This document shows positions 15,484-59,603 of a stretch of DNA of 64,000 nucleotides, piece after piece (within the stretch, counting starts at the first letter, position 1; each line of letters begins with the position of its first letter). Origin of the DNA: a virus. The stretch lies in IMG/VR virus record IMGVR_UViG_3300028416_000485. One strand, given 5' to 3'. A program made the position numbers and the translations under genes. The notes under the pieces are model-generated. The model saw only the letters and a program-made list of their open reading frames with translations, had not been told where the DNA came from and made no database searches.

Positions 15484-16371
15484 ATGTTTGAATATACAAA
15501 AAATAATCATGTAGATTGTGGATTTACATGCGACAACGACTTTTATTTTAATCACGGAACTGTAAGTTCGTATGGATCGTGGAGAGATGAATGCAAATCT
15601 ACAGCACAGCAACTTTATGATTTACATGGTGACAAACTTGTTTTATTATTAAGTGGCGGGCTTGATAGTGAAGTAATGCTGCATAGTTTTATTTCATGTG
15701 GTATAACTCCTAGAGTAGCTATATTTAGATATGAGCGTAACCTTAACTTACACGATATAAACTATGCATTAAGATTATGTGCAGCCAGAGGTATTTCTCC
15801 TGATATTATTGATATCAATGTAGAAGACTTTTATAAAACACAGCTAATAGATTTTGCACAAGTCACACGTTGTAGTAGTCCTCAACTAAACTTATATTAT
15901 CACTGTGCCAATCGTTTGGATGGTATACCTGTATTTGGTGGTGGTGAAAACTACTTGATACGACAAATAGGAAAAAAGCCTGTATACGATTGCGAAGAAG
16001 CTAGAGTTACTACATTATATACATATTTCCGAGATATACAAAGAGAATGTATTCCTAGTTTTTTCCAATACACACCAGAAACTATGATAAGTTATTTACA
16101 AAAAGAAAGTGTATATCGTTGGGTAGAAACAGCTTTCAAAGATAGATATATAAACAGTAAAAAGATTAAACCAAGTATTATTGCTGAAGATTTTGATGTT
16201 GAGCCTAGAGGCAAACTTACCGGCTTTGAACTAATGATGGATTTAGATAAAGAATACAGAGACAAACTATTAGCATTAAACTTAGGTGATAACGGCGAGC
16301 AACTAATACCGTTTGAAGAATATATTCCAATGTTTGGTGTAGAGCTATTAAGACCTATAAAATATGAATAA
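15484..16371 (+). CDS. PP-loop (N-type ATP pyrophosphatase) family protein
   Basis: LLLSGGLDSE motif near the N-terminus; lacks the QueC C-terminal Cys cluster. Confidence 0.6.
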   Translation: MFEYTKNNHVDCGFTCDNDFYFNHGTVSSYGSWRDECKSTAQQLYDLHGDKLVLLLSGGLDSEVMLHSFISCGITPRVAIFRYERNLNLHDINYALRLCAARGISPDIIDINVEDFYKTQLIDFAQVTRCSSPQLNLYYHCANRLDGIPVFGGGENYLIRQIGKKPVYDCEEARVTTLYTYFRDIQRECIPSFFQYTPETMISYLQKESVYRWVETAFKDRYINSKKIKPSIIAEDFDVEPRGKLTGFELMMDLDKEYRDKLLALNLGDNGEQLIPFEEYIPMFGVELLRPIKYE

Positions 16372-16903
16372 ACACAATCTCATTGAATATTTAAATACAC
16401 ACGAAATAAGTTTGGGACTTAGTAGTGATACTAATGAGTTGCGCTTCATTAGTGATACAGTTGGTTATGGTAAGTTTGCTACTCGAGATATCAAAGAAGG
16501 AGATATCATTTATCGTGTAGGTGGTATGTGGTTAACTGAAAAAGAAAGATCTGCATACAAACAAGATTACTTTCATTTAGTAAACAGTGCATGGCACTTT
16601 CAAGGTGGATTGAAATACTGGCTCAATGGTTGCCACAATCATAGTTGCAACCCTACAGCATACGTTCAAGAAAACTTAATCATTGCATTGCGTGACATTA
16701 ATGTAGACGAACAGATAACTGTAGATTATGCCGGGTTTATTGATCACGATTATACTATCATTGATAAATGCTGCTGTGGTGCAGAACAATGTCGAAAACA
16801 TATAACTGGCAAGGATTGGTTAGTACACAACCTACCCGAAGTATACAACTATCGGGTTAGTGGTACTATTTTGACAAAGTGGCTACAAGATCAAAAAATC
16901 TAG
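16364..16903 (+). CDS. SET-domain protein-lysine methyltransferase with post-SET Cys motif
   Basis: GYGKFATRDIKEGD, NHSCNP, ALRDINVDEQITVDY, CCCGAEQCRKHI. Confidence 0.88.
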   Translation: MNKHNLIEYLNTHEISLGLSSDTNELRFISDTVGYGKFATRDIKEGDIIYRVGGMWLTEKERSAYKQDYFHLVNSAWHFQGGLKYWLNGCHNHSCNPTAYVQENLIIALRDINVDEQITVDYAGFIDHDYTIIDKCCCGAEQCRKHITGKDWLVHNLPEVYNYRVSGTILTKWLQDQKI

Positions 16904-17921
16904 TATAATCATTATGATCAGCAATAAACATAGGCAAAAATAATAGTGTGTTATTTGCTTGACGTATAAGATATCCTTGTTTTTGTAGTTCTCTACGTAT
17001 GTATATTCCGTTTTCAACATGAATACCAAACACTAATCCTTTGTTTGTATAATCTAAGTTATGCTCATTTAACTGTTTGCAAAATGCATTTTGCAAATCT
17101 ATCAATTGATATTTCATGTCTTCGACTTGTTTTATAGTTTGTAATAGTGCATAACTGCCTTGTGGATGGCCACTCATTGTATATCCATGCGAAAATACTC
17201 TATCTGTATTTTTAATATAACTTCCAATATCAGCGTTTACCATTGTAGCACTTAGAGGAAATATTCCATTGGTTAATCCTTTACTAGCAATAAGTATATC
17301 TGGCTTGTAATCAAAACTATAATCGCCTCGTCCTAATGCAGTAACAGTTTCATCAAATATAATACAAAAATCATACTGCTGCTTTAAATCAAATAGTTGC
17401 TGCAATGTTTGTTTATCAAACTCTATAACACCATTAGTAATCATTATAGGCTCTATAATAACTGCTGCTGTGTTGCTGTTTACAGCGTCTAACAGCGCCG
17501 TGTAGCTGTCATACACACTTGCTTGAGTGTTTGTACCATGATAGCCTACACTGTATGCTAAAATGTCTGTTTTACCTGTATAATATTTTGCAATGTATAT
17601 AGAAGTGTCTATAGCATCACTTCCGCTGTGTCCAAAAAACACTCTATCATAACCAAACCATTTACATATTTGTTCAGCAGCAAGTTCTGTTGATTCAGTG
17701 CTACTCCAAAAATGCGTTGGGTAATAATGCAGATCAGTTGTAGGAGTATACATTGGATTATTGTATCCAAAGTTTACATTCCATAATCCACTATTACAAT
17801 CGATATATGTCTTATCGTCAGCGTTTGTTACAGTATCATTTTTTCCCGAAACAAAAACTTCTGGATTTGTAAATCTACTATGGTTTGAATAAGAAAATAT
17901 TTGTCTAGACATTAAACTCAT
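16866..17921 (-). CDS. Class III PLP aminotransferase (omega-amine/putrescine type)
   Basis: DCNSGLWNVNFGY, SGSDAID, FDETVTALGRG, PDILIASKGL, HGYTMSGHP. Confidence 0.88.
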   Translation of the reverse strand: MSLMSRQIFSYSNHSRFTNPEVFVSGKNDTVTNADDKTYIDCNSGLWNVNFGYNNPMYTPTTDLHYYPTHFWSSTESTELAAEQICKWFGYDRVFFGHSGSDAIDTSIYIAKYYTGKTDILAYSVGYHGTNTQASVYDSYTALLDAVNSNTAAVIIEPIMITNGVIEFDKQTLQQLFDLKQQYDFCIIFDETVTALGRGDYSFDYKPDILIASKGLTNGIFPLSATMVNADIGSYIKNTDRVFSHGYTMSGHPQGSYALLQTIKQVEDMKYQLIDLQNAFCKQLNEHNLDYTNKGLVFGIHVENGIYIRRELQKQGYLIRQANNTLLFLPMFIADHNDYTRFFDLVATLSK

Positions 17922-18528
17922 CTACTGTATATTCAACACAATCTGCTATTAAAAAGACACTTTCATCTTGTTCAGTAATAATACTATGTGTAAATTTTGG
18001 ATCAAAAAGAAAAGCATCGCCTTCTTTTAAACTTAAATTATTTCCGTTATAACACCAATCTGTATGTGTAGTTTCTTTACTTATACACTGAACATAACGA
18101 ATTGGACTATCTTTATCTACGTGCATTGGCAACTTATGAGGTCCTTTATGAATACTGTACCACAAATACTTAAAATTGTATTTTGTACAAGTATTAACAT
18201 ATTTTTTATTATTTGCAATATCAAGATCAAAGCTATGTATTTTTACACTATTGTATAAATCATTGTATATAACATTTCCAGTTTTATCCATATATATAGT
18301 TGTACTACCAACAGGCTGCTGCATACACCAATTTTCCATTTTCCATTCATTGTTAAATGTTGTCTGTGTTTCAATTACACTATTGATTGGATTATATAAA
18401 TTTATAATAATCCAATCGTTGATTACATGTCCAAGATCGGAATATAAGTGCTGGTTTATTTGTTTTTTATATAACTTTTTAAAATACCTAGTATCAAATA
18501 AAGGATCTATAAACTTTATATTATTCAT
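17905..18528 (-). CDS. Putative 2OG-Fe(II) oxygenase / cupin (AspH-like)
   Basis: LPMHVD (HxD) and distal FTHS in a beta-rich C-terminus. Confidence 0.55.
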   Translation of the reverse strand: MNNIKFIDPLFDTRYFKKLYKKQINQHLYSDLGHVINDWIIINLYNPINSVIETQTTFNNEWKMENWCMQQPVGSTTIYMDKTGNVIYNDLYNSVKIHSFDLDIANNKKYVNTCTKYNFKYLWYSIHKGPHKLPMHVDKDSPIRYVQCISKETTHTDWCYNGNNLSLKEGDAFLFDPKFTHSIITEQDESVFLIADCVEYTVDEFNV

Positions 18529-20291
18529 AGTTTAATAGGTACCTGATTATTTCGCTGATCTCCGTCTGTTGGATACATCCAACTGGTGTTGTACGTTATA
18601 TTTCCTGTGAGATCATTATGTTTTATTAAGCCAAGGTGGTACTTACCTATCCATTCAATGTTTGACTTGTATACATAATCAGGTACTATTCCAGAACATA
18701 ATGCGTCTGTAGCTTCATGATGTGTTAATCCAAAGCTACGAAGTCTTGGATATGCCCAAAAACTTACATTGTAGTCAGCATGTCTTTCAAATTGTGTGCG
18801 GGGATGATTTTCCATTATACTCTCCCACCTTAACGCAATTTCTTTAGCTTTAGGTAAATCCATAGTGCCGTGTCTCCAATAGTATTCAGGATCCCATCTT
18901 ACTTCATGTATTCCAAATTTATCAGACTTGTCACTAAACGCATTACTTGTGCGGCCGCCGGCATCTGATACAAAAAGTATTTCGTATTGCGCTTTATCGA
19001 TAACTTGTTGTTTAACTAACCAATCAGCAGTATCCATTAGACTTTCTTCAGTTTCGCCAGGAAGCCCTACTATAAAACTAGTAAGTATAAAGATTTCGTC
19101 TCCTGCTTTTTCGCGAATCCACTCTAGTATTCCTTTAATTTTTTCAGGGTCTAATCCTTTACCGGCAACTTTTGCTGCTGTATGATTAAAAGTTTCAACG
19201 CCTAAGAACATACCTCTACATCCCATGTCTAGCATTTTATCTAACATTTGTGGAAACTTATGGAACATATCCGGTCTGGTATACGCAATCCATTCGATCT
19301 TAAACGGCAAGCTACTAATAACATCATGCATCATATTAATTTTTGCCATACTGTCGTTTACTGTATCATCAGTAAGTTGATATCCAGTTGTTCCAAAATG
19401 CTCATAGTTATAAAGTAGTTCTCTTCTTAAACATTCAGCACTTTTAATAACTGTTCCACTATGATCATAGAAACAGAACTTACATCCAAATCTACAACCT
19501 TTTGATATTTCTAAAGGAAGCCATTCGCCTGTTTGTACACTATCTTGCGGTATCCATTTTGTTTGTGTAACTATTGCGCCTTTGCCAGCTAGTGCAGGTT
19601 CATTAATAAATGTTACATTATCTTTTATACGCATTTGAGAAGGGTCTAGCTCGCCATTTAAAAAATCAACCATTGTTCTTTCACTGTACCCATGGAACGC
19701 ATAATCAATATACTCTTTCATTGCCTCGGGCAAAGACTTATTTACTTTTCCTGTTACAAAGTGCTGTTTATATATTGTATCTACTAATGCGCCACCGATT
19801 ATTATTTTTGCGTTTGGGGCCCGACGTTTTAATTCCTTAAACCATTCGCAACATTCTTCATGACTAAAATGCCATAAATTAAATTTTCCTTGAGTAGGAT
19901 TAAAAGGATTATTTAAAAACGTTAAACTTAAAGCAACATACTCAGTATCTGGTGTTACTAACTGTTCAAAGAAATCAAAGAAATTATCTAGTTTAGTAAA
20001 ATAATCAAAAACTATTGCTTCGTATTTTGTATGTTCTCTAATATTACTAGCTACAGTATACGGTCCCATGTATCTAGTCCAGAAGTTGTACTTACTACTA
20101 CCTAAATATTTGCCACCTACATAGTTGGTATTTTTAACTGATATTTCTAATCCGTATTCACTATTAACATCTTCAAAAGCAGATTTGTACATGTCAGTAC
20201 GTTCATCCTCTTCGAGAAAGTGCGATCTAAACTTTGTACCACCTGTACCTCTTACATCATAGATATCGCTTAAAATTATTATCCTACTCAT
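18525..20291 (-). CDS. Cobalamin-binding-domain radical SAM enzyme
   Basis: N-terminal B12-type domain (GPYTVAS...KIIIGGA), EISKGCRFGCKFC, LTDDTVN, FLGVET, FIVGLPGET. Confidence 0.85.
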   Translation of the reverse strand: MSRIIILSDIYDVRGTGGTKFRSHFLEEDERTDMYKSAFEDVNSEYGLEISVKNTNYVGGKYLGSSKYNFWTRYMGPYTVASNIREHTKYEAIVFDYFTKLDNFFDFFEQLVTPDTEYVALSLTFLNNPFNPTQGKFNLWHFSHEECCEWFKELKRRAPNAKIIIGGALVDTIYKQHFVTGKVNKSLPEAMKEYIDYAFHGYSERTMVDFLNGELDPSQMRIKDNVTFINEPALAGKGAIVTQTKWIPQDSVQTGEWLPLEISKGCRFGCKFCFYDHSGTVIKSAECLRRELLYNYEHFGTTGYQLTDDTVNDSMAKINMMHDVISSLPFKIEWIAYTRPDMFHKFPQMLDKMLDMGCRGMFLGVETFNHTAAKVAGKGLDPEKIKGILEWIREKAGDEIFILTSFIVGLPGETEESLMDTADWLVKQQVIDKAQYEILFVSDAGGRTSNAFSDKSDKFGIHEVRWDPEYYWRHGTMDLPKAKEIALRWESIMENHPRTQFERHADYNVSFWAYPRLRSFGLTHHEATDALCSGIVPDYVYKSNIEWIGKYHLGLIKHNDLTGNITYNTSWMYPTDGDQRNNQVPIKL

Positions 20292-21811
20292 AATAAGTTG
20301 TTTTTCCTTAAATATTCATTTGCTAGTTTTTTATAGTTAGAAGCGTGTTGTCTAATCCATGTTGTATTATTTTTATCTGCACGAATGATCTCACTGTGTG
20401 TAAATCTTAGATTACTAGCACGACTGTATCCTAAGTAAGATGTCATAATGCGTTTTTGCCATGCGGATCCTTGTTGTGCTTGTTCAATAATATTTATCAA
20501 GTCTGACTTTGTCATATCGCCGTTTTGCCAATCTTCAACATATATACCATTAGCGTTTTTTTCAAGTGTAACCGTATATCCGTATTTTTCAGGATTGCGT
20601 TGTATTCTACTATAATCAATAGTATATTCTTTGTTAGGATCATATCCACCAATATATAGAGGAGTTATCTCCCAAGCATCAAGCCATGGCTGTGTACTAA
20701 TCCAATCTACTAGTTCAATACAACTAGACTTTGTTTCTCCTGGCAATCCTAGTATAAATCCACTGCCTTGTACTATACTATCGCCCCATACACTTTTACA
20801 TTGTTCTAACGCACTTTCAATAATATGACGTTTGGTTACTTTGCCTATAAGAGGTCCTACATGATCTGTAACTGTTTCTATTCCCCATTGTATACTGCGA
20901 CAGCCACTTTCTTGTATCATACTAATCATTTCAGGCTTTTGGTATAACAAGTCAAGTCTACCAAAACCACTCCATGTAATATCAAACGGTAGGTCAGTAA
21001 ATACATTGTGTATTAGACTCATCTTTCTCATGTTTTCGTTGAGCTGATAATCAGTAATCATGTAGTGATGTGTACCAAAACGTTCATAGTTTTCTATTAG
21101 TACATCTCGCAAATGTGTTTTGTCTAAGGTCCAGCTGTTTACTGCTTTTTTAGGGTAGTCACAAAAGGCACAGTTAAAAGGACAACCTCTACTGATTTCT
21201 AATGGTAGTGCTTCATGTGGAAATATATAATCATCGTCTGTCCAGTGTATTTTACTGTACCTAAACTCTTGCTCTGTCATACTACCATAATCAAGTTCTG
21301 ACTTAACAAAGTTAGTTTCAGGAAACTGTTCCATTAATCCCAACACACTTTTATCTGCCATACCTCCTACCCATAAGTCTACCATAGGATACTTCTTTTG
21401 TAGAGCACGTTTTTGTGCAACCTTTTGGCCACCTACAACTATCTTGATGTTAGGGTATTTGGCTTTTGCAATATCAAACCATTTAGTAACTTCTTCTGGA
21501 GAAAAAGGAAAATACACATTCCACATATTACTTTTGCGTGTTCTACTATCTGCACTCCAATGTGTTTCCCAATCTTCTGGCATTAGTGTACTAAAATGTG
21601 TACTACTAAATCCTAAAAACTTTGTTTGATTGCTTACGTATAAATCTACTGCACGTTGAAAACGTTCTTCTGTAAAGTGACTAAAAAAGTCTATAACTTT
21701 AACTTTGTATCCTGATTCACGTAGTCTGCTGGCAACTGTATAGGCGCCAGCATCTCTGCCCCAGCCTATGCTACCATTGCATTCTGTAAATAGCACTACA
21801 TCATAACTCAT
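20288..21811 (-). CDS. Cobalamin-binding-domain radical SAM enzyme
   Basis: GAYTVASRLRESGYKVKVIDF, KIVVGG, EISRGCPFNCAFC, WGIET, FILGLPGET. Confidence 0.87.
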   Translation of the reverse strand: MSYDVVLFTECNGSIGWGRDAGAYTVASRLRESGYKVKVIDFFSHFTEERFQRAVDLYVSNQTKFLGFSSTHFSTLMPEDWETHWSADSRTRKSNMWNVYFPFSPEEVTKWFDIAKAKYPNIKIVVGGQKVAQKRALQKKYPMVDLWVGGMADKSVLGLMEQFPETNFVKSELDYGSMTEQEFRYSKIHWTDDDYIFPHEALPLEISRGCPFNCAFCDYPKKAVNSWTLDKTHLRDVLIENYERFGTHHYMITDYQLNENMRKMSLIHNVFTDLPFDITWSGFGRLDLLYQKPEMISMIQESGCRSIQWGIETVTDHVGPLIGKVTKRHIIESALEQCKSVWGDSIVQGSGFILGLPGETKSSCIELVDWISTQPWLDAWEITPLYIGGYDPNKEYTIDYSRIQRNPEKYGYTVTLEKNANGIYVEDWQNGDMTKSDLINIIEQAQQGSAWQKRIMTSYLGYSRASNLRFTHSEIIRADKNNTTWIRQHASNYKKLANEYLRKNNLL

Positions 21812-22251
21812 ATTTCTTTAATCACATAACAATTTTGTTCGCTAGTTTCAGTTTCAAAAAACTTGCTTGTTTGTTCAAAGCCAGCATTCAAATAAGTCTT
21901 TAATGCAACCTTTCGTGGTAGGCTCCAACAATATTTTCTGTTTTCGTTTTTGGCTAAATTTACAGTATATTCTAACAAATGTTTACCAATATTATTGTAT
22001 CGATATTCAGGCATTACATATAATCCTCTGCTTCTGTAATGCACTCTACTTGTTGAATGACCGCTGTTTACACCTACTATCTTGTCATCAAGAATATAAC
22101 CAAAAAACGTAGGTTTATAGTTTTTATAAATGTTATCATATGATGTATCTTTATAACGCATATTACTCATAGGTAATATATTATTTCGGTTGGGCCATAA
22201 AAACTCTTGCCAAACTTGATAAACTTCATCGTATGATAGTTCTTTAATCAA
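21808..22251 (-). CDS. GNAT family acetyltransferase
   Basis: Motif A RGLYVMPEYRYNNIGKHLL; motif B ALKTYLNAGF. Confidence 0.8.
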   Translation of the reverse strand: MIKELSYDEVYQVWQEFLWPNRNNILPMSNMRYKDTSYDNIYKNYKPTFFGYILDDKIVGVNSGHSTSRVHYRSRGLYVMPEYRYNNIGKHLLEYTVNLAKNENRKYCWSLPRKVALKTYLNAGFEQTSKFFETETSEQNCYVIKEI

Positions 22252-23225
22252 TACTGATCTCCTACAACAATATGCTTGGGTACAAGATATTGATATATTT
22301 TAAAAAAACTTTGATTGAATGTATTGCCGCTAGAAGCCATTCCGCTGTGTGGCATTTCAACTGGCACAGTTAATGGTTTGTTTACAAAGATAGTTCCCCA
22401 ACGTGCATGTTCAACTACATAACGTTTGGTTGCTAAATCTTTGGTATATAAATGCAATCCTAATCTATTATGAAGTTGGTTTATTTGTTTTACAAGATCT
22501 TTGATATTTGTATATGTACTTACTGTTGCTGTTGGAGAAAAGTGATCAATATCATTGCACTCTCCTAAAGTAACACCGTCGATTGCCATTACAGTATCAA
22601 GTAGTTCTTCAACAACAAAAATATGTTTAGGTGCTGTGCAATCTGCTCCAAGATTGTACTTAACACTCCATTCAAGATTTTCTAATATAAATGCCGAATT
22701 ACCATCGTTAACAACTGCTATACTTGCTCCGCCTACATCTGCATTTACATCATGATGGTTTGATTTAAAATAATCTGCTGTTTTCTTGCTGCCTGTTATA
22801 TCAACAAAGTCATAATCTTTTAAGTTTATATTGTTGACTATTTTTACACTATTGTATTTGTTTTTCCAGTTATCTAATATCCAAGGCAAGGCACCTACAT
22901 TACCATCATTTAGTTTAATATCAATAGTGCATCCAGCTGCTAGTGCCGGCGCTATTTTCCATAATGCTATAACCAATGGATAGTTCCACGGAACAACACC
23001 TAAACAGTGTCCTTTTGATTCCCATCTCATACTACTAGTACATGTCTTAAAGTATTCATATTCAGGCACAGCTATTAGGTTTCGAGCTGCACCAGCATAA
23101 TATCTACAAATATCAACACTAATATTAACAAGTGCAGTTGGTTCAAGTTGTAGTATTTTTTGTTGGTTATCTTCTATAAACTGTGCTAGGCTCAGAAGAA
23201 TTGATTGCTTGTCTTGAGGTTTCAT
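22248..23225 (-). CDS. Minimal aldehyde dehydrogenase, PatD/YdcW (4-aminobutanal dehydrogenase)-like
   Basis: YYAGAAR, PWNYPL...WKIAPALAAG, ITGS, YNLGADCTA (catalytic Cys), EMPHSG; only 325 aa. Confidence 0.75.
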   Translation of the reverse strand: MKPQDKQSILLSLAQFIEDNQQKILQLEPTALVNISVDICRYYAGAARNLIAVPEYEYFKTCTSSMRWESKGHCLGVVPWNYPLVIALWKIAPALAAGCTIDIKLNDGNVGALPWILDNWKNKYNSVKIVNNINLKDYDFVDITGSKKTADYFKSNHHDVNADVGGASIAVVNDGNSAFILENLEWSVKYNLGADCTAPKHIFVVEELLDTVMAIDGVTLGECNDIDHFSPTATVSTYTNIKDLVKQINQLHNRLGLHLYTKDLATKRYVVEHARWGTIFVNKPLTVPVEMPHSGMASSGNTFNQSFFKIYQYLVPKHIVVGDQY

Positions 23226-24572: not shown

Positions 24573-24580
24573 TATTTATG
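24573..24580 (-). promoter_or_regulatory. Late-type promoter before the nitroreductase gene
   Basis: CATAAATA on the minus strand, then a GAGGAG SD. Confidence 0.45.
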
Positions 24581-26361: not shown

Positions 26362-26362
26362 T

Positions 26363-28905: not shown

Positions 28906-28934
28906 ATTATAACATTCCTATTTACGTGTGTCAA
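28906..28934 (-). promoter_or_regulatory. Consensus sigma70 promoter, probably leaderless
   Basis: Minus strand TTGACA(28934-28929)-17 bp-TATAAT(28911-28906)-6 nt-ATG, with TGn. Confidence 0.8.
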
Positions 28935-35829: not shown

Positions 35830-35836
35830 ACTGTAC

Positions 35837-51410: not shown

Positions 51411-51421
51411 GAACAGAATGT

Positions 51422-51429
51422 GATAAATA
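51422..51429 (+). promoter_or_regulatory. T4-like late promoter
   Basis: GATAAATA upstream of a GAGGA SD and ATG 51453. Confidence 0.6.
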
Positions 51430-51452
51430 CTAGAGAAGAGGAACCAACAAAA

Positions 51453-52868
51453 ATGACCGATTTTATACCAGGTGAAGCATACCGACTAGATATTATTACA
51501 GCAGACGAAACAGTTATTGTTGATAGCTGGCAGGGACAGATTAAAGCCAGTGTTGTTGATGTTGACGGTATTATATTAGTTGATGTTGAAACTGGAAACT
51601 TGTATGGTTCTTTGATTGGAACCATTGAAGATACAGAAGGTAATACTATTTTATCTTCCACAGGCAATCTAACTGGTAGTGTTACTGGTAGTGTATACGA
51701 CGACAACGAGGGGTTAGCATTTGATGGTGATACTGGATTGGTTATTGCTGATGTTGTCGGAAACATTGTAGATAGCAATGGCGAAGCTATTGTTAATACT
51801 GGAGCAAGATCTATTAATGCCGACAGTATTACTGGATCGTTTTACGGTGAGCTTACAGGAAGTATAACTGCTGATAGTGTAATATACGGTACATTTAACG
51901 GTGACTTTAATGGTACTAGCTACGGAGATTTTTTCGGTGATACTACAGGTACACATACTGGTGAAGTAATAGGCGGAGTAACTGGAGACGTAACAGGCAA
52001 TGTTACAGGAAATCTTACTGGAGAGTTACTTGCTATACAGCCAGGCGATGATATTGCTACACGACTAACTGGACACAACAATACTGGTGGATACGATCAA
52101 TGGGAGTTTTACGGTGGACTTGCTCATCCTGTTTATCCTGAAGATGATGCAGTTGCAAGAGGTCCTATAGTTAATATTGGAGCAACTAGAGCTGACACAG
52201 AAGTAAGAGCCAACTTAAATCATTACGATGGCACACCGGTAATGAGATTGTCCCTGGAAAGCTCGCCAACTTACAAAGCTGATTTTATGGGAAGACTTGT
52301 TGGAGCAGTTGCATATGACACACAAGGCGAAGATGGATTTATTAATATTGTATCAGGTTCAAGCAATGGAACACTTATTAGTGGTGTAAATGATAAGGTA
52401 AACATTGGTAATGAAAATGACGAAGTAAATATTATTGCTGATAGTTTAAGTATACAAACTGACTCGATTGACTCTCTTGCACACAGAGGCGAAGGCAATT
52501 CTAAAACATCATTATTAAACAATGACGAACTATTAAGTATCGAAAGCTGGGGATACAACGGTACTGAATACAAACGTGGTGGGCTTTTTGGATTTAAAGT
52601 TGACGGGACACCGGCTGCAACTGGAAATACTATGCCGTCAAGTTTTGGTATACAACTAAGTTCAGCGTCTAATACACATGTTACAAATACAGAAAATAGA
52701 CTAGAGTTCAACAACAAGGGCGTATTAGAAGTTCCAGTATTTAAAGCTAGAGGTACTACATTTGCTGACAGAGATAGTATGACAGCAGAAGCAGGTATGA
52801 TATTGTTTAACACTAGTAATAACAAGTTCCAAGGATATACCGGAACAACATGGGTTGACTTACACTAA
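51453..52868 (+). CDS. Tail fibre / virion structural protein, related to 11368-13017
   Basis: GxxxG repeats (GDVTGNVTGNLTG); C-terminal DRDSMTAEAGMILFNTSNNKFQGY...W module. Confidence 0.72.
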   Translation: MTDFIPGEAYRLDIITADETVIVDSWQGQIKASVVDVDGIILVDVETGNLYGSLIGTIEDTEGNTILSSTGNLTGSVTGSVYDDNEGLAFDGDTGLVIADVVGNIVDSNGEAIVNTGARSINADSITGSFYGELTGSITADSVIYGTFNGDFNGTSYGDFFGDTTGTHTGEVIGGVTGDVTGNVTGNLTGELLAIQPGDDIATRLTGHNNTGGYDQWEFYGGLAHPVYPEDDAVARGPIVNIGATRADTEVRANLNHYDGTPVMRLSLESSPTYKADFMGRLVGAVAYDTQGEDGFINIVSGSSNGTLISGVNDKVNIGNENDEVNIIADSLSIQTDSIDSLAHRGEGNSKTSLLNNDELLSIESWGYNGTEYKRGGLFGFKVDGTPAATGNTMPSSFGIQLSSASNTHVTNTENRLEFNNKGVLEVPVFKARGTTFADRDSMTAEAGMILFNTSNNKFQGYTGTTWVDLH

Positions 52869-52920: not shown

Positions 52921-53139
52921 ATGTTATTTGATTGGAAACATTTAAAAAAAGCAAATACTAACTATTTTACACATTGTTTTATAGCAATATGTTATAGTTT
53001 TTTGGGACTTGGTATTTTTATAATGGGCATATTACACGCATTTTTTCCTTTTATGTTTGGATTTACACCTTACAAGATTGCTAAAAAAATCACCGACGGT
53101 ACTGAAAAAAACTTTCCTGCTTGTATCAACGAGAAATAA
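52921..53139 (+). CDS. Small membrane protein (DUF6356-like)
   Basis: HL....NYFTH...hydrophobic helix...LHAFFPFMF; AAGGAG SD. Confidence 0.6.
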   Translation: MLFDWKHLKKANTNYFTHCFIAICYSFLGLGIFIMGILHAFFPFMFGFTPYKIAKKITDGTEKNFPACINEK

Positions 53140-54201
53140 ATGAAAATTTTTATAGACGGTGAACAAATATCCGAACAATGGATAAGCGATTACACACTAA
53201 GTAATCCTGTGAATTGTTACAGTAACAACCCAGACTGGGAACAGAACGTTCTTAAACTATTACACAACTGGTATTGGCAAAATGGATATAGCTATGGCTA
53301 TAGAGGTGATCAGTTTCTTAATCTAAGTACTAGCGGTACAACTGGATTTCCGCAGGACATTGGACATACCAAAGAAACCATAGAACAAGTTGTAGATGCA
53401 AATATTAAAACACTAGGGTTAGATAAAAATAGTAAAATACTCAGTTACTATTCTCCTCGCGGTATTGCGTTTAGTGTGCTAAGTGTATACCTTGCATTAA
53501 AACTAGATTGCGAACTATACATCGAAACATTCAAAGGCATTGACTATGTAAATCGTGTACACGAAATACGTCCGACACATACATTATTATTACCCAATGT
53601 TTGGAAAGTATTACACAAACACGATAGATGGAAGACACTAGATTATAGTAGTTTAGAAACTGTTATTACAGGAAGTGATTTTACACCAACAGGTATGCTG
53701 GACGAGCTACGTGAGCATAATCCAGGAAAAGTATACAATGTATACGGTAGTACTGAAGTACCTCCTATGGTGTTGTACAGCGAAGAAGAAAATACATATA
53801 CTATAGATAGTATTACTCCGGGTGCAGAAGTTGATATTGTAAACGGGCAGATTGCTTGCAAATGGAGTAGTCAATCTAACATATGGATTAGTGGTGACTG
53901 TGTTAACGGTGACAGAAATAGATTTACAATTAACGGACGCAAACACAATATGTTTAAACAAAATACTATCAGAGTATACCCTGAACAAATAGAAAAAGCG
54001 GCCGTTGCAGCTGGTGCAGAACTTGCATTATGCCAACAAATTAAAAATCAGTGTATATTATATTATACAGGCAATATAAAAGATATGGCAAATTTTGTAG
54101 AACAACATCGATATATTCCAAGATTTAGACTTCGGGCAGTAGATAAAATAGAAGTAGATAATAATCTAAAAAAGATTATAAGGACGCAAACATTTGTATA
54201 A
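53140..54201 (+). CDS. Minimal adenylate-forming (AMP-binding, acyl-CoA ligase-like) enzyme
   Basis: A3 STSGTTGFP, A5 YGSTE, A7 SGD, A8 GRKHNMFK...VYPEQIE, A10-like LKKIIR. Confidence 0.8.
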   Translation: MKIFIDGEQISEQWISDYTLSNPVNCYSNNPDWEQNVLKLLHNWYWQNGYSYGYRGDQFLNLSTSGTTGFPQDIGHTKETIEQVVDANIKTLGLDKNSKILSYYSPRGIAFSVLSVYLALKLDCELYIETFKGIDYVNRVHEIRPTHTLLLPNVWKVLHKHDRWKTLDYSSLETVITGSDFTPTGMLDELREHNPGKVYNVYGSTEVPPMVLYSEEENTYTIDSITPGAEVDIVNGQIACKWSSQSNIWISGDCVNGDRNRFTINGRKHNMFKQNTIRVYPEQIEKAAVAAGAELALCQQIKNQCILYYTGNIKDMANFVEQHRYIPRFRLRAVDKIEVDNNLKKIIRTQTFV

Positions 54202-54808
54202 ACTAGAAATGTATAATGGTACACAAGATCTAACAGATTTTTATAAAGGTGCTGCTGCTAAAGGGTTTTATAACAATCATAATAAAACTGTGTTAATAGA
54301 TTATATTAACAAACACGAAAATGCAAACTTATTTTTATTATACTATGGAGATAATATTGTAGGCACTAGTGTGAGCCATAGTTTGCAACAGTTAGGCATA
54401 CTAGGAAAAAATGCACATAGAATAAGTGCTAGAACATGTGTATTAAATGATATAGTTGACGGGGAACGTGCCCATGCTGTACACAACTATCGACACTCTC
54501 CTATGAATCATTGGACTAGTCAAATGCTTACGCCTGTGTGTATGCACTATGTTGGATTAGAAAATCCTCAATATATTAGTACAAATACATTAGAAACTGG
54601 AAGTCAAAGTAAAGTACATCGCATATGGTCAAAGATTATGCACAACCAAGGATATTTAAAAGATCCTATAGAGTTAGAGTACAAAGGAACATTTCAAACA
54701 TTTTGGAAAGTTGACGTTGATTTTTATATGAAAAAACTAGAAGAAAATATGTGGCCTGAAACTAAACAAGCACTAGACGTATTTCTTACAAAGTTCAAAA
54801 AAGTCTGA
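54194..54808 (+). CDS. Hypothetical protein, possibly GNAT fold
   Basis: LFLLYYGDNIVGTSVSH...HRISARTCV beta pattern; coupled to the ligase gene. Confidence 0.45.
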   Translation: MYKLEMYNGTQDLTDFYKGAAAKGFYNNHNKTVLIDYINKHENANLFLLYYGDNIVGTSVSHSLQQLGILGKNAHRISARTCVLNDIVDGERAHAVHNYRHSPMNHWTSQMLTPVCMHYVGLENPQYISTNTLETGSQSKVHRIWSKIMHNQGYLKDPIELEYKGTFQTFWKVDVDFYMKKLEENMWPETKQALDVFLTKFKKV

Positions 54809-56146
54809 CATCTCTGGAAACACTTGTTCGTGATCAACATTACGTCTACGCCCTTGTTCTTCAAAGAAGTTGTGGAAGTCTCTACGTCCTTGAATAACTT
54901 TATCTAGTGGATATTCTGTAGATTCCATGTAATCAACTACACGACGAAACTTTTCATACTCGATAGTGCTAAATGCATCCTTGCGATTATCATCTGTGTT
55001 CTCTTTGATAAACTGCAAATGGTCGTGCATATAACTCATGTAGTTTTTAGGCAGGATATTGATATCATACTGTAGAGGTTCTTTGAGATGCGGAGTATCA
55101 AACCCTAGTCGTTGCCATCTGTGCGTTTCTACATCATTGTATTTTTTACGCCATTCAAGAATCTTTTCAAGCAATGTGCGGAATGTAGTGACACTGAAAA
55201 TATTAAATGTAATCATAATAACCATTGGTGCTTCACAGTTGCGCATAAAGTAATCTAAGTTGCGTTCAAACACTTCAATGTCTAACCCATCACGAATATA
55301 CTCTGCACGTTTGCCCCAAGTGTCAATACTTGTAAACATTTTAAAACGTCTAATCTTGTTGTTTGTCAACAAGTCATTCACACGGTTTGTAAACTTTTCC
55401 AACTGCTTTGGCTTGCCACCTAAGTTGCTGTTGCAGTTTAGTTCTAACTCTGGTTTAGGATCTGCATCCAGCATATCAAACAACTTGTATGTGCTTTGTT
55501 GTATTGTAGGCTCACCGCCTGTAATACGCAAAATATGCAAGTCCTTACTAAGCTCTGGCCACCATTTCCAAAATGCATCTAAATACGGATTGCTTTGTTC
55601 TTCAAATATTTCAAACCAGTCAATATCGCATCTGTGATTCTTTACGTTTGTATAAGGACCGTGTTGCTTGATCTCTTGATGATATCTACTGCTGGCTTTT
55701 GGATGACAATATCCACAACGGAAGTTGCACTCATTACCAAACGAAACTTCCAAGTATTCTGGATTAACATCAAACTCAGCACCGCCTTCTTTGACAGCTT
55801 TCAAGCGTTCTTTGAAAAAGATAGTTTGATTGCGTTGTTTTCTATCACTAACATAGTCTTTGCCCATTGCTTCAATCTTCCAGCAATAGTTGCATCCACT
55901 AGGTTGTTCACCTTTCATCATAGCAGCACGTTCTGCTTTCTTTTGTGCTGTATTGTGTATAGCACTAGGATTCTCTAATAGCGGTGCTGCGTCAATCTTG
56001 TGAGGAGCAGGATGATAACAACTATGTGTTTCACCTGTCTGAAAATAGATGTTTGCATGATACCACTTGGCAAAGCAAAACGTAGGAGATATTTCCTGCG
56101 TAATCTTATCGATACGCTTGATTTCTTCGCTTTCGCTGCGTTCCAT
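54773..56146 (-). CDS. N-terminal twitch-domain radical SAM enzyme
   Basis: FCFAKW...HSCYHP...CNYC; CNFRCGYC; ITGGEP; SIDT; YIRDG. Confidence 0.9.
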   Translation of the reverse strand: MERSESEEIKRIDKITQEISPTFCFAKWYHANIYFQTGETHSCYHPAPHKIDAAPLLENPSAIHNTAQKKAERAAMMKGEQPSGCNYCWKIEAMGKDYVSDRKQRNQTIFFKERLKAVKEGGAEFDVNPEYLEVSFGNECNFRCGYCHPKASSRYHQEIKQHGPYTNVKNHRCDIDWFEIFEEQSNPYLDAFWKWWPELSKDLHILRITGGEPTIQQSTYKLFDMLDADPKPELELNCNSNLGGKPKQLEKFTNRVNDLLTNNKIRRFKMFTSIDTWGKRAEYIRDGLDIEVFERNLDYFMRNCEAPMVIMITFNIFSVTTFRTLLEKILEWRKKYNDVETHRWQRLGFDTPHLKEPLQYDINILPKNYMSYMHDHLQFIKENTDDNRKDAFSTIEYEKFRRVVDYMESTEYPLDKVIQGRRDFHNFFEEQGRRRNVDHEQVFPEMSDFFELCKKYV

Positions 56147-57069
56147 TATTGTTCTCTATCTAAGAATTGTTTGCTGTTATCACGTGCCGGATTTTTGTAT
56201 ACTGTTTTAAAAAATAGACTTTGATTTCCATCAAGTGGTTCAGCAGCAATAGGCAACTCAAGTTCGTCTATCAGTGAATACCCAAGTCCAACAGTTTCTA
56301 TTTCCATATGGTCTTCATCCATATCTTTGCTATCCCAATACTCATTGAGCCAATCAAAATCACGTACATTTACAAAGTCCCAGTCTGTACACATTGTCTT
56401 GTACAATCCTTCTCGTGCGCCGTAGATAGCCCAACGGCCGTTCTCAACATCTGCACCAATCATTAGCCAGATGTACAAACGGTGCAAGTTCTTCCAGTGA
56501 TTTTTATGAAAGTCCTCTACACTAACACGCATGCCTTGATCCAGTGCCATTTTAACACCTTCTCTAAATCCAGCACGCCATGCTTGATGCGGTGTAGCAT
56601 TATTCATAATAGTACTGTATGTACCATTCATTTGTATGTACTGTGTATCCCAACAGAAATCTACTTGTGCATGTGGATTATCGTTGGGTGCATTTTCGTG
56701 TGTACGCATGTTTAATACATGTTGTTTGGGCCAGCACTTAATGCCGCCATTTCCGTATGTAAGATTATTGATACTATTAAGTGCAGTCCAACTAATAACT
56801 TTATTAGTCAAATCTGTATTTTCATCAAAGTCCATTGTTTGCGACAAAAACTTTTCATCAATAATATTGTCGCCGTCTATTGTAATAAACCTATCAGTAG
56901 TTGATTTGTTAGCGGCTGCTTTGTGTGCGCTATCACTGCCTTTTACACCATGCACACGCTCTGCCCACGGAACTTTCTTACACAAGTCTGCATAGTTTTG
57001 TTCTGCATTAGGCTCGTCGTATGACAAATATATAATATCGCAATCAATAACTCTAAATGTGTTAGCCAT
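56146..57069 (-). CDS. GT-A fold glycosyltransferase
   Basis: YLSYDEPNA, HGVKGSDSAH, DxD (TIDGD), YGNGGIKCW, AWRAGFREG; homologous to the last module of 49728-51374. Confidence 0.75.
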   Translation of the reverse strand: MANTFRVIDCDIIYLSYDEPNAEQNYADLCKKVPWAERVHGVKGSDSAHKAAANKSTTDRFITIDGDNIIDEKFLSQTMDFDENTDLTNKVISWTALNSINNLTYGNGGIKCWPKQHVLNMRTHENAPNDNPHAQVDFCWDTQYIQMNGTYSTIMNNATPHQAWRAGFREGVKMALDQGMRVSVEDFHKNHWKNLHRLYIWLMIGADVENGRWAIYGAREGLYKTMCTDWDFVNVRDFDWLNEYWDSKDMDEDHMEIETVGLGYSLIDELELPIAAEPLDGNQSLFFKTVYKNPARDNSKQFLDREQ

Positions 57070-57604
57070 TTATTTCCTCATAATGATAAGTATCAAACCT
57101 ACGCATAGTATATACTGAAACTTCTTCGTTGTCAAACTCAAAATCATTTTCAAACGCTACTTCATCTCCGTTATTAAAACGTATTAATCGATACAATACA
57201 TTTGGGTCATCTTTTTTTGTTATACTAAAGTAGTAGTTTGAAAGATCGATTGTAACTTTTTTATCATTTAAATCTTCTATAAAACCAGGATCAGCAGATA
57301 TTTTCCAAACATGTTTTACATTATCTTTAGTTAATACTATTTGTTTGTTATTAGGTACAGTTCTAGGAATCTGATATAGAAAACACCACATCAGCTTGTC
57401 CTCGTCGACTTGTGTCTGGTTTTTAATATAATATTTTTTATCTATAAAATCATATTCAACCTTGTAGTCTAATAAACTCCAATGTCCTTCTATAAACTTC
57501 TTAACATCTTCAAAGTCGCACTCAAGAAACTTAAATCTGTCATCAGATTCTTTTGAGATTTTATAAATATTTCCATCGTCATCAAAACATACAAATCGTT
57601 TCAT
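57062..57604 (-). CDS. Phage hypothetical protein
   Basis: 180-aa ORF in operon. Confidence 0.6.
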   Translation of the reverse strand: MKRFVCFDDDGNIYKISKESDDRFKFLECDFEDVKKFIEGHWSLLDYKVEYDFIDKKYYIKNQTQVDEDKLMWCFLYQIPRTVPNNKQIVLTKDNVKHVWKISADPGFIEDLNDKKVTIDLSNYYFSITKKDDPNVLYRLIRFNNGDEVAFENDFEFDNEEVSVYTMRRFDTYHYEEING

Positions 57605-57605
57605 A

Positions 57606-58448
57606 TTATATTCCTAAACATTTTTCATATTTTTTCATTAAACTATTATTTAAGAAATCTTTTTCAGTGTAATGAAAAATGCCCGATTGCTGATGATTTC
57701 CTATTTTTAGCCTCATATCACTGTCAAAATAAACACCAACTCTATCTTGCCAACGATATGCAAAGTTAATGTCCCAACCTTGAATCTTTGGTTTCATATG
57801 TGTAAATGTAGGATTCTTAACTTTATTGTTTGTAATCAAATGTTCAATGTCCATTATTTTACAAGCAACTGCTGCGCTAACATCCATGCTTGGACGCAAT
57901 GCAAACTTTTTTCCAGAACTAGCTGATTTATAAAACTGTTCCCAGTTGTTTGTTATCATTTCAAGCCAAGTATAAAACTCATGTGCTAAGTCAGATTTCT
58001 TAAACCAATGGAGACCACTATACAAGTTTGGAAGATTGTATTTTTTGAACGCTTTACGATAATAGTTGTCATCTACTAGTTCTCCACGGTATGTATACAC
58101 ATTGCTAGTGTAAAATAAATCATAGTTTCTTAAGAAATCAAACCAACTACTAATGTCTTCAAGTATTAACATATCTGTATCTATCACCGCAGTTTCGTTA
58201 TACGGAATAGCATGATATATTTTCCAACGATTGCTGATTTTCCAATCTTCATCCTTGGCATGATCTCCCCACGGTATTTCAACGATATGATCAAACAAAT
58301 GTTTGTATTTTGTAGGCACACTTTCATTAGTGATAAGACAAATACTAACATCTTTGTTTGTAGCATGAATACTCATTGCTGCTAAACATGCTTGTCTAAC
58401 ATAATCAAAACCACTGTTTTGTGCCAGCATTGTAAAGTTATTGGTCAA
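57606..58448 (-). CDS. GT8-like glycosyltransferase
   Basis: ACLAAMSI, FDHIVEI, PYNETAVIDTDML (DxD), FTHMKP. Confidence 0.7.
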   Translation of the reverse strand: MTNNFTMLAQNSGFDYVRQACLAAMSIHATNKDVSICLITNESVPTKYKHLFDHIVEIPWGDHAKDEDWKISNRWKIYHAIPYNETAVIDTDMLILEDISSWFDFLRNYDLFYTSNVYTYRGELVDDNYYRKAFKKYNLPNLYSGLHWFKKSDLAHEFYTWLEMITNNWEQFYKSASSGKKFALRPSMDVSAAVACKIMDIEHLITNNKVKNPTFTHMKPKIQGWDINFAYRWQDRVGVYFDSDMRLKIGNHQQSGIFHYTEKDFLNNSLMKKYEKCLGI

Positions 58449-59259
58449 TAATTCTCTCCAAACTAAACTTGTTCATCACATGACAGTTACTACCTTTGAG
58501 ATTTACAGCAGTGTATTCTCCAAGTCTTTTATTTTTTTGTACTAGTATTTTTATTTCATCGTCTTTAATCCCAACAGCTACGTCTTTGTCTGTTGCATAA
58601 AACTTTGTTCCTGGCAAACTTCCAACAAAGTTTCCTGTTTGATATCCATTCATAATATGTACTGCAATACTAAAAGCAAAATCGTTTCTATATACACTTG
58701 TTTTAAACTGATACATATTACGATAGTGTATATAGTTTTCTTCAATGTGCTTGATCAAATCAAAGAACATTTTGTTTTCATCTGTTTTTCTAAAAAAGAT
58801 TACAGTAGCCCAATAAAAATCTACACTAGTATCACTTACTTTTTCAAACTCGGGTACTATTCTATGCATTCCAACATGAGTAGCATCCTTGTATAGCAAA
58901 AGATCTTTTTGCTGTACAAAGCAGTTGTTTAGTAAATCATTGCTAATGATATAATCAGTATCCATTACAATAGTAGAATCGTAAGGAGTTAACTCATATG
59001 CAGATGCTCTGTTTTTATTATTAAACTTTAATGTTTTATCACTAAAATCGCCATCGGCATATCGTTTACTAGTACTATTTTTAGTCATGTCATCGGAGTG
59101 AATAACATAATCAAATACATCAGATTCGATATCTATATCTGTAACAATCGAAGTGGGCAAGTCCATATACTTGCGTATGCGTTTAGCAAGGAAAATAGCT
59201 TGCTTTACATAATCAACTGATTTATTATTACTTGCGAATAACAATACACCCTTTGTCAT
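58438..59259 (-). CDS. GT8-like glycosyltransferase, paralog of the downstream gene
   Basis: DYVKQA, FDYVI, TPYDSTIVMDTDY (DxD), RNDFAFSIA, HVMNK. Confidence 0.7.
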   Translation of the reverse strand: MTKGVLLFASNNKSVDYVKQAIFLAKRIRKYMDLPTSIVTDIDIESDVFDYVIHSDDMTKNSTSKRYADGDFSDKTLKFNNKNRASAYELTPYDSTIVMDTDYIISNDLLNNCFVQQKDLLLYKDATHVGMHRIVPEFEKVSDTSVDFYWATVIFFRKTDENKMFFDLIKHIEENYIHYRNMYQFKTSVYRNDFAFSIAVHIMNGYQTGNFVGSLPGTKFYATDKDVAVGIKDDEIKILVQKNKRLGEYTAVNLKGSNCHVMNKFSLERIIDQ

Positions 59260-59603
59260 AAATCCATAATACTTTCAACTGTTCTATTTGTTTTTAACTT
59301 ATTATATTCAGTTAAGTATTTGTTTGTTGATTGCCAATACACATTTACGAGTTCATTGGCAAAATCTTGTAATACTTCTATTTCAATAGGTATACCACTA
59401 TCATCAACTAATATAGTTTCAGTTTGATGTAGTGCCAATAAACTTTGACAAAAACTTATAAGATCTTTTGTTACAGAAAACTGACCACCATTAAAATAAT
59501 AAACAAGATTATCGTGGTACTGTTCTTTTAACAAACGTTTTTGATTATTTAAAGTAATCATGTAATTGCTAAAATCTAATGCTTTTTCTAAGCGTTCGTC
59601 CAT
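59256..59603 (-). CDS. Phage hypothetical protein (possible tail assembly chaperone)
   Basis: AGGAGA SD; own promoter; 115 aa. Confidence 0.65.
   Translation of the reverse strand: MDERLEKALDFSNYMITLNNQKRLLKEQYHDNLVYYFNGGQFSVTKDLISFCQSLLALHQTETILVDDSGIPIEIEVLQDFANELVNVYWQSTNKYLTEYNKLKTNRTVESIMDL

Follow-up and report, generated by a model that had tools for sequence, protein, structure and literature searches.

Eighteen radical-SAM genes in one tail-fiber region island of a marine jumbo phage, with a gene core shared with Bdellovibrionota

What would a bacteriophage do with 18 radical S-adenosylmethionine (SAM) enzymes? Such enzymes perform some of the hardest reactions in biology, and one abundant ocean phage, represented by IMG/VR virus record IMGVR_UViG_3300028416_000485, devotes about 23 kb to them. 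The window, by which we mean the whole 64,000-nucleotide (nt) stretch of this record that was analyzed, holds them in an island at positions 15484 to 59603, which a first-pass annotation made from the sequence alone took for a candidate undescribed pathway of virion or DNA hypermodification. We suggest that the island encodes soluble enzymes of a cytoplasmic pathway for building and tailoring a glycan, the carrier of which is probably a fiber or other virion protein; we hold this reading tentatively, at slightly less than an even chance, and we infer the substrate class, the acceptor, and every reaction within it. A glycan that is first built and then tailored is the best reading given the GT-A-type glycosyltransferases, the methyltransferase and the SGNH-like genes of the island, the carbamoyltransferase of sister phages, a GT-A/methyltransferase pair that recurs in bacteria, and the linkage of GT-A genes to fiber genes.

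Genes were taken from a six-frame list of open reading frames (ORFs) of the window, which yields 67 credible genes. The CxxxCxxC motif is present in exactly 18 ORFs, each encoded on the minus strand within 18525 to 56146, against a chance expectation of about 0.12 calculated from the cysteine content of 20,725 residues. Every one of the 18 matches the Pfam model Radical_SAM (PF04055), 14 of them above its gathering score of 29.5 bits; those below it are g50, g51, g52, and g58, of which g51 and g58 are backed instead by passing matches to NF033640 and g50 and g52 by their paralogy to g42 (BLASTP E values of 1e-27 and 7e-41). The number of radical-SAM genes in the first-pass annotation thus stands, and they occupy 22.7 of the 44.1 kb. 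Equally real is the translationally coupled minus-strand run that it described from 51374 to 16866: 34 genes meet at 33 junctions, 27 of which are overlaps (1 to 53 nt) and five of which are gaps of 35 nt or less, and the single sizeable gap, of 203 nt, is filled by an ORF of 74 amino acids (aa) (48490 to 48714, minus strand) that is called as a gene in sister contigs.

The contig is from an approximately 350-kb PA5oct-like marine jumbo myophage that is abundant, cosmopolitan, and uncultured. The RNase H encoded in the window is 48.5% identical to that of the PA5oct group of Pseudomonas jumbo phages, and no GenBank phage has DNA nearly identical to the window. Its relatives are IMG/VR contigs; one contig of 117 kb (G002) keeps the gene order of both flanks and has a gene for a baseplate hub/tail lysozyme. 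A close relative, on a contig of 353.6 kb, adds a carbamoyltransferase and TauD. The exact g39 protein occurs in about 256 sample blocks of the collection and the exact g60 protein in about 258, spanning hundreds of seawater assemblies. A cellular biosynthetic cluster, an origin for which the first-pass annotation had allowed, was rejected on the basis of the baseplate hub/tail lysozyme of the syntenic contig, the PA5oct-like RNase H, the flanking fiber genes, and the IMG/VR relatives.

Sorted by BLASTP and NCBIfam, the 18 enzymes appear to fall into four old classes. The largest, with an N-terminal twitch domain (N-twitch), has nine members that score 194 to 422 bits against NF033640 (N_Twi_rSAM, twitch domain-containing radical SAM protein), the curated cut-off of which is 170 bits over the whole protein: g36 (30725 to 32038; 378 bits), g38 (32678 to 33862; 387 bits), g40 (34621 to 35889; 273 bits), g41 (35837 to 36973; 210 bits), g43 (37956 to 39128; 239 bits), g47 (41593 to 42927; 194.5 bits), g49 (43791 to 45188; 422 bits), g51 (46246 to 47421; 243 bits), and g58 (54773 to 56146; 299.5 bits), the last gene of a separate fiber-proximal minus-strand block. 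These paralogs share just 21 to 33% pairwise identity; invariant among them are four cysteines N-terminal to the CxxxCxxC motif, the motif itself, and a GGE sequence, and Pfam places a SPASM domain at residues 10 to 95 or so of g38, where it precedes the Radical_SAM match, and of g40, g49, and g51. The likely determinant of specificity in an N-twitch enzyme is a C-terminal domain of about 100 residues. Three enzymes carry a C-terminal SPASM domain or belong with one that does: g42 (36949 to 37998; Radical_SAM, 35.7 bits; SPASM PF13186, 29.7 bits, residues 262 to 347) and its mutually paralogous relatives g50 (45185 to 46249) and g52 (47418 to 48497), assigned to this class by paralogy only. 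Three short generic enzymes, g33 (27787 to 28899; Radical_SAM, 55.9 bits), g35 (29553 to 30728; 42.2 bits), and g45 (39632 to 40786), show weak matches to viperin, PapB, and anSME. The last three, the putative B12-class paralogs g23 (18525 to 20291; 61.6 bits), g24 (20288 to 21811; 47.9 bits), and g32 (26363 to 27787; 62.8 bits), have cobalamin-dependent radical-SAM families as all of their top NCBIfam matches, at scores of 60 to 89 bits against cut-offs of 360 to 750 bits; the B12-binding domain PF02310 is matched by g24 alone, at 22 bits against a cut-off of 32.1. A recent tandem expansion was rejected as the origin of this collection, since the paralogs are 21 to 33% identical and each has orthologs in distant phages and bacteria; the exception is the pair g35 and g45, 69% identical and the sole recent duplication among the 18, both of which are matched by a single copy in G002.

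Homology does not choose a substrate class for these enzymes, because their closest solved relatives are all weak and act on varied substrates: a peptide (SkfB, E value of 1e-10), a lipid (GDGT-MAS), a nucleoside sugar (BlsE), and nucleotides (viperin and MoaA). PDB sequence searches with g33 and g52 gave no matches. Gene fusions give no hint either, as the long N-twitch proteins hold only tandem N-twitch units and tetratricopeptide (TPR) repeats. Context must therefore decide, and the partners that the radical-SAM genes keep are a glycosyltransferase and a methyltransferase.

The methyltransferase, g53 (48701 to 49744, minus strand), has a class I SAM-methyltransferase fold in its C-terminal 190 aa, which supports the first-pass assignment; its helical N terminus is poorly predicted, while the AlphaFold2 confidence score (pLDDT) exceeds 88 for residues 160 to 347, and Foldseek aligns the model with TehB, NodS, Coq5, and RebM at E values of 4e-6 to 5e-5 and target-normalized template modeling (TM) scores of up to 0.71. 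Upstream of it, g54 (49728 to 51374, minus strand), the first gene of the run, has a weak Glyco_tranf_2_3 match and ends in a GT-A domain that is 31% identical to g59 and of the same family. Toward its N terminus, the segment that leads into the GT-A domain, together with the start of that domain, recurs in two further, degenerate copies (...NKKE.DI.AS.P.PYDIF...ALETSTT...), which look like remnants of an internal duplication. The model of g59 (56146 to 57069, minus strand; pLDDT of 88) has the GT-A fold of a nucleotide-sugar transferase: VIA Z values run from 10.4 to 9.2 across B4GALNT1 (10.4; root mean square deviation of 3.0 over 139 aligned residues), a Leptospira glycosyltransferase, STIV A197, and the S-glycosyltransferase SunS, and the best Foldseek match, although marginal (E value of 1e-3, TM scores of 0.3 to 0.5), is a glycosyltransferase domain of PBCV-1 A64R. 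An alignment of 16 family members shows a DGD motif (consensus, VVDGDN) in which D67 never varies and D65 and G66 hardly do. The paralogs g61 (57606 to 58448) and g62 (58438 to 59259), both on the minus strand, are probable GT8/nucleotide-diphospho-sugar transferases, given language-model atlas look-alikes of that name at 0.99 and nearest Pfam-bearing clusters assigned to Nucleotid_trans and Glyco_transf_8. Four glycosyltransferases, as first annotated, are therefore plausible, g54 and g59 on fold and motif and g61 and g62 on atlas look-alikes only. PDB sequence searches with the g59 and g53 families found no matches, and the PHROG families yield no function for g53, g54, g59, g61, g62, g64, or g65.

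The pair accompanies a radical-SAM core in phages and bacteria alike. In public data, the N-twitch profile retrieves 8,049 clusters at 50% identity with E values below 1e-30, and a profile scan of one genome per prokaryote species yielded 78 loci, overwhelmingly from metagenome-assembled genomes (MAGs) of Bdellovibrionota and some on contigs of 0.8 to 3 Mb. These loci contain about 195 N-twitch ORFs; g33-like genes are present in 29 of them, C-terminal-SPASM genes in 24, g53-family genes in 14 (one of these loci being a probable phage contig), and GT-A-family genes in 13. Matches to NF033640 above its cut-off were found in 31 of 151 genomes from the phylum of a Bdellovibrionales genome, with up to 16 copies in a 1.9-Mb genome, in 3 of 201 from the phylum of Poseidonocella and 3 of 201 from that of Reichenbachiella (seed genome included in both cases), and in none of 14 control genomes; the family is concentrated in Bdellovibrionota, as against about 1% of the genomes sampled in the two other phyla. 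Six genes of the island have clustered Bdellovibrionota orthologs: g33 (65 to 67% identity), g49 (60 to 62%), g36 (47 to 50%), g52 (46 to 48%), g53 (40 to 44%), and the GT-A gene represented by g54 and g59 (39 to 45% for g59). In a phylogenetic tree, the nine N-twitch paralogs of the window are not monophyletic; g49 and g36 fall into supported orthogroups with Bdellovibrionota and distant phage genes (support of 98 to 99 for g36), and the Bdellovibrionota g49 orthologs adjoin the GT-A/methyltransferase pair. The recurrence of this unit in cells argues that the island is an enlarged version of an old, shared pathway. We further propose, as a possibility that we rate as doubtful, that the N-twitch enzymes and their fixed partners (GT-A, methyltransferase, C-terminal-SPASM, and g33-type proteins) constitute an ancient pathway of jumbo phages and Bdellovibrionota that makes a new class of radical-edited glycan or glycoconjugate, which both kinds of bacterial predator would use at the surface of prey or host; the island with its 18 enzymes would then be a diversifying library of new carbohydrate radical chemistry. 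Two further contigs with a phage-type island, one of 108 kb in a MAG named 'Gammaproteobacteria MED685' (L012; g49-type match with an E value of 1e-254) and one of 13 kb in a 'Neisseriaceae' MAG (L045; g49-type match of 74% identity), are probably phage contigs binned into bacterial MAGs.

The neighbors of the cellular clusters bear on another explanation, that the enzymes mature a protein or peptide by cross-linking, epimerizing, or methylating side chains, either in a structural protein of the phage or in a peptide made on ribosomes, with glycosylation (as by SunS), Asp/Asn hydroxylation, Lys methylation by the SET protein, and acylation as additional steps. SPASM and twitch enzymes typically mature peptides, the nearest sequence relative with a solved structure is SkfB, and weak NCBIfam matches extend to PapB, anSME, and many maturases of ribosomally synthesized and posttranslationally modified peptides (RiPPs). 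The combination of B12-class enzymes, a hydroxylase, and a methyltransferase recalls proteusin tailoring. AspH-type, SET, GNAT, and AMP-binding enzymes lie within the island, a subtilase-domain protein lies on its flank, TPR repeats are fused to some N-twitch proteins, and SunS is among the fold matches of g59. Nevertheless, we consider maturation unlikely: among 136 neighbors of cellular N-twitch clusters, the commonest families include no C39 peptidase, ABC exporter, YcaO, or LanB-type partner but are led by GT2 (seven genes), followed by Asp_Arg_Hydrox, carbamoyltransferase, methyltransferase, and QueC-like proteins, and the partners that are conserved are the GT-A protein and the methyltransferase. 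Pfam scans recognized no RRE/PqqD domain, and beside the cellular clusters no family of conserved small ORFs came to light, although these were not closely checked and small precursors are easily missed; the short ORFs that do recur there are probably antisense reading frames. A 314-aa family that also recurs there has no PDB sequence match.

The location of the island, in what appears to be a hypervariable tail-fiber ('host recognition') region, is consistent with a glycan for the virion. On its left, g17 and g18 (11368 to 15452, plus strand) encode an Mtd_N fiber-like protein (48.9 bits) and an 817-aa protein with a subtilase domain (Peptidase_S8, 48.4 bits). The fiber-like g55 (51420 to 52868, plus strand), rich in Gly/Thr/Ser repeats, diverges from g54 across 45 bp; the similarity of g17 (11368 to 13017) to g55 is confined to the C-terminal 41 residues (44% identity), and neither contains cysteine. 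We regard g55 as a candidate acceptor. On the right, the paralogs g64 and g65 and the tail-fiber gene g66, which has a PHROG tail-fiber match, occupy 59657 to 63286 on the minus strand, upstream of g63 to g58, so that the tail-fiber genes are directly followed, on the same strand, by three GT-A genes and one N-twitch gene; Collar-domain fiber genes, seen in sister contigs, follow just past the right end of the window. The first-pass description of the island as embedded among tail genes therefore holds for g17, g55, g66, and the Collar-domain genes but not for the far left flank, which is metabolic and replicative.

Under the glycan reading, four GT-A-type transferases would use nucleotide sugars to build a short glycan on an acceptor that is soluble and, most plausibly, a fiber or other virion protein, as in the glycosylation of chlorovirus capsids. 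The product would be decorated by the class I methyltransferase, by SGNH-like and GNAT acyl enzymes, and by amidating enzymes of the PP-loop type, and further by the aminotransferase, the dehydrogenase, and cupin oxygenases, while the 18 radical-SAM enzymes would act at unactivated carbons, each old paralog carrying out its own step; epimerization, oxidation or deoxygenation, C-C or C-methyl chemistry, and B12-dependent methylation are possible reactions. SAM would be supplied by MetK (S-AdoMet_synt, E value of 1e-56), encoded at 76 to 1562 on the plus strand with a purine phosphoribosyltransferase-like gene (Pribosyltran; PDB matches to purine phosphoribosyltransferases) that would aid SAM turnover, and SAM supply and adenine salvage for 18 SAM-consuming enzymes are the likely roles of this pair.

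Several points weigh against this reading. We found no paper on a tested NF033640 member, and the family has no known reaction, substrate, or product; the solved relatives appear too weak and too varied in their substrates to pick a substrate class, and SPASM and twitch enzymes are best known from peptide maturation. Nucleotidyltransferases are also among the GT-A fold matches of g59, no gene for nucleotide-sugar synthesis was recognized in the island, and GT2 accounts for just 7 of the 136 cellular neighbors, most of which have no assigned family. Bdellovibrionota, to our knowledge, have no phage fibers, so that the acceptor there must differ, and the four N-twitch genes of a cultured phage, Vibrio phage K566, do not adjoin fiber genes. 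The glycan tailoring that the first-pass annotation proposed is supported indirectly, by the GT-A proteins, the methyltransferase, the shared core, and the fiber-linked genes, and its DNA option is disfavored.

A glycan need not be destined for the virion. A study of pelagimyophages (PMC7029224) proposed that the glycosyltransferases of their host-recognition cluster remodel the host envelope (lipopolysaccharide O chain or capsule) during infection, which would block superinfection or the readsorption of progeny; the region that it describes, with glycosyltransferase genes and radical-SAM cassettes, is like the one in which the island lies. The GT8-like look-alikes of g61 and g62 point in the same direction, and Bdellovibrionota would use the cluster for their own surface glycan. 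Solubility argues otherwise, as no island enzyme has a membrane-like segment, a hydrophobic product being expected only from a 72-aa ORF (52921 to 53139, plus strand; DUF6356 in sister contigs), and scans of the island revealed no polyprenyl-phosphate transferase, flippase, polymerase, ligase, or Gtr-type protein. Without membrane components, the island could only feed modified nucleotide sugars to host machinery, and we regard envelope remodeling as quite unlikely.

The remaining genes of the island include a variety of small-molecule enzymes. Pfam confirms the class III aminotransferase g21 (16866 to 17921, minus strand; Aminotran_3, E value of 2e-40), which is the last gene of the run; the aldehyde dehydrogenase family protein g26 (22248 to 23225, minus strand; 325 aa; Aldedh, E value of 2e-32 in three stretches); the GNAT acetyltransferase g25 (21808 to 22251, minus strand; Acetyltransf_7, _1, and _10); the SET-domain methyltransferase g20 (16364 to 16903, plus strand; 45.6 bits); and the short-form adenylating enzyme g56 (53140 to 54201, plus strand; AMP-binding, 65.7 bits), all of them as first annotated. 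With 351, 325, and 353 aa, respectively, g21, g26, and g56 are clearly shorter than the Pfam models, which they cover in part, and may be streamlined or truncated forms. The three PP-loop ATPases were also correctly recognized, each having an SGGxDS motif and weak profile matches: g19 (15484 to 16371, plus strand; SGGLDS), which is QueC-like but not a canonical QueC (21.4 bits against a cut-off of 22) and has no match in a PDB sequence search, and the paralogs g46 (40776 to 41600, minus strand) and g48 (42920 to 43801, minus strand; weak ATP_bind_3, TilS, and LarE matches), both with SGGADS and related at an E value of 7e-36.

Other assignments stand in part. Of four proposed 2-oxoglutarate (2OG) oxygenases, g30 (25067 to 25639), an Asp/Asn beta-hydroxylase-type cupin oxygenase, passes its profile (Asp_Arg_Hydrox, 34.8 bits), whereas g22 (17905 to 18528), a possible cupin/2OG-type protein with weak Cupin_2 and Asp_Arg_Hydrox matches and an HxD...H pattern, g27 (23237 to 23899), which has no assigned family, and g31 (25636 to 26388), with the HxD...H pattern only, show weak matches or the mere pattern. 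One of two nitroreductases is verified (g28, a flavoprotein of that family; 23903 to 24553; 34.3 bits), the second resting on weak hints, and the two short-chain dehydrogenases/reductases are short paralogs with weak matches (BLASTP E value of 7e-6): g29 (24576 to 25070), with TGxxxGxG and YxxxK motifs, and g44 (39094 to 39648), with a weak adh_short match and homologs in cellular N-twitch loci. The two SGNH proteins are weak leads, namely, g37 (32035 to 32730; DUF1574, 25.9 bits, below cut-off) and g39 (33855 to 34628), a conserved viral protein that is 80% identical in G002 and has a GDSL lead from the atlas only. All of these genes are on the minus strand, as are g34 (28918 to 29517) and g60 (57062 to 57604), which, like g57 (54194 to 54808, plus strand), have no match, and g63 (59256 to 59603), which joins its block to the fiber-like genes g64 to g66.

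This enzyme complement raises the possibility that the product is diffusible, being a small molecule or a modified nucleotide (for example, a chain terminator like that of viperin, a glycoside resembling an antibiotic, or a cofactor), and that phages and predatory bacteria direct it against competitors or host defenses. Aminotransferase, aldehyde dehydrogenase, nitroreductase, ligase, and carbamoyltransferase together recall aminoglycoside and nucleoside antibiotic clusters, all of the enzymes are soluble, g33, g35, and g45 are weakly similar to viperin and MoaA, and the gene set is common to two kinds of bacterial predator. Scores are far below every family cut-off, however, and no exporter or self-resistance gene was recognized. 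The variability of the locus is a further argument against a fixed metabolite, for gene differences from strain to strain fit surface diversification better. G002 has a longer island with 22 Radical_SAM matches (21 above cut-off) and is without g19 to g27, g31, g32, g34, and g44; a strain with an identical g39 differs in the left arm, where it has TauD. Measured against G002 orthologs, the ratio of nonsynonymous to synonymous substitution (dN/dS) is 0.02 to 0.22, like that of flanking core genes, with dS saturated, and indicates purifying selection; for g33, which is 86% identical, it is 0.02. The center of the island is stable and constrained, and its periphery is swapped cassette by cassette. 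On balance, a diffusible product seems improbable to us.

Hypermodification of DNA, in which bases would be oxidized, glycosylated, or aminated and the adducts tailored for antirestriction, is the alternative that the first-pass annotation set beside modification of the virion. GT-A folds include DNA glucosyltransferases. The island has QueC-like PP-loop proteins, with FolE and a QueE-like gene nearby, and g27 gives a weak Tet_JBP (2OG) hint (E value of 0.018), but at 14.7 bits this is far below the cut-off of 34.9, and g27 is absent from G002. No DpdA/TGT, kinase, hydroxymethylase, or DNA-binding domain was recognized in the island, its core is chromosomal in ordinary Bdellovibrionota without phage context, and the probable 7-deazaguanine genes stand apart from it, in a module at a distance of 11 kb; we consider this option highly improbable. 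In that module, FolE (GTP cyclohydrolase I), which is firmly identified, and the 318-aa g4 occupy 1952 to 3636, followed by a 134-aa ORF (to 4116). Weak PDB matches mark g4 as QueE-like, and a long insert splits its cluster motif (C-x3-C ... CDT); the genes look like a preQ0-type module, and neither QueD nor DpdA was recognized within the window. Lying outside the island and invisible to a CxxxCxxC search, g4 would be a 19th radical-SAM gene.

How novel is such a locus? A T4-like marine viral genome with 12 radical-SAM genes has been reported (PMC5332604), and radical-SAM cassettes have been noted in the host-recognition cluster of pelagimyophages, marine T4-like phages in which this cluster is a hypervariable island with tail fibers between VrlC and gp14 (PMC7029224). 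Like those phages, the present one is marine and T4-like, and it has tail-fiber and glycosyltransferase genes in what appears to be a hypervariable region, many radical-SAM genes, and the gain and loss of cassettes; the two papers mention the radical-SAM genes in passing, without classes, partners, or function, and the present phage is larger (about 350 kb), belongs to a PA5oct-like lineage, and has 18 such genes. To call the pathway undescribed was therefore an overstatement, the cassettes having been noted and the family cataloged as NF033640, although no function has been assigned. That family name is descriptive only; nine island proteins pass its cut-off and keep its cysteines and GGE, and here nine diverged members stand with nine radical-SAM enzymes of other classes in one island. 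The locus is a large, well-preserved example of a widespread, unexplained system and less surprising than first held; what the present analysis adds for it is the prevalence of the family in Bdellovibrionota, the six-gene orthologous core, the argument from an all-soluble enzyme set, and the folds of two conserved partners. A paper on 'moraphage' (PMC12619734) was rejected as a precedent, since it concerns a different lineage and leaves radical SAM unmentioned.

Comparison with characterized systems shows the same mixture of likeness and difference. We know of no radical-SAM enzymes in the chlorovirus glycosylation system. That system resembles the island in its virus-encoded, soluble, cytoplasmic GT-A enzymes and methyltransferase, A064R of PBCV-1 having two glycosyltransferase domains and a methyltransferase domain (reviewed in PMC9614988 and PMC5408694); its acceptor is the capsid, and the A64R match is marginal. 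Radical-SAM enzymes of aminoglycoside and nucleoside antibiotic pathways (BtrN, DesII, AprD4, NeoN, GenK, and BlsE) act on unactivated sugar carbons and have twitch or B12 auxiliary domains; BlsE and AprD4-family models match the island weakly, with no family cut-off reached, and the twitch domain is N-terminal in nine island enzymes but C-terminal in the antibiotic enzymes. RiPP maturases (SkfB, PapB, anSME-like proteins, and the proteusin enzymes PoyB/C/D) have the same auxiliary-cluster domains as the island enzymes, yet neither the island nor the commonest neighbor families of the cellular clusters yielded a recognizable precursor gene, RRE, leader peptidase, or exporter, and scores are far below the cut-offs.

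With more than 8,000 clusters in NF033640, knowledge of its substrate would open a large block of enzymology and could account for the ways in which giant phages, perhaps along with predatory bacteria, vary or shield what they expose to their prey. The question is within reach of the bench thanks to the six-gene core and to cultured carriers of N-twitch genes, namely, Vibrio phages K566, K567, and KVP40 and Ralstonia phage RsoM2USA. The KVP40-like K566 offers a tractable model system; its four N-twitch genes lie at 161.5 to 168.3 kb of the record among unannotated genes, three genes from an annotated PagP-like lipid A acylation protein.

Some minor features of the window complete the description. 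Rfam and tRNA scans had no matches, so that no SAM or B12 riboswitch is present there, and the T4 late-promoter word TATAAATA shows no enrichment, with 4 sites where about 11 would be expected. A PDB sequence search with g5 gave no matches. At 7294 to 9780, genes for a MoxR-type AAA ATPase and a DUF2201 metallopeptidase/VWA protein form a pair, and MoxR-type ATPases also occur twice among the neighbors of the cellular N-twitch clusters.

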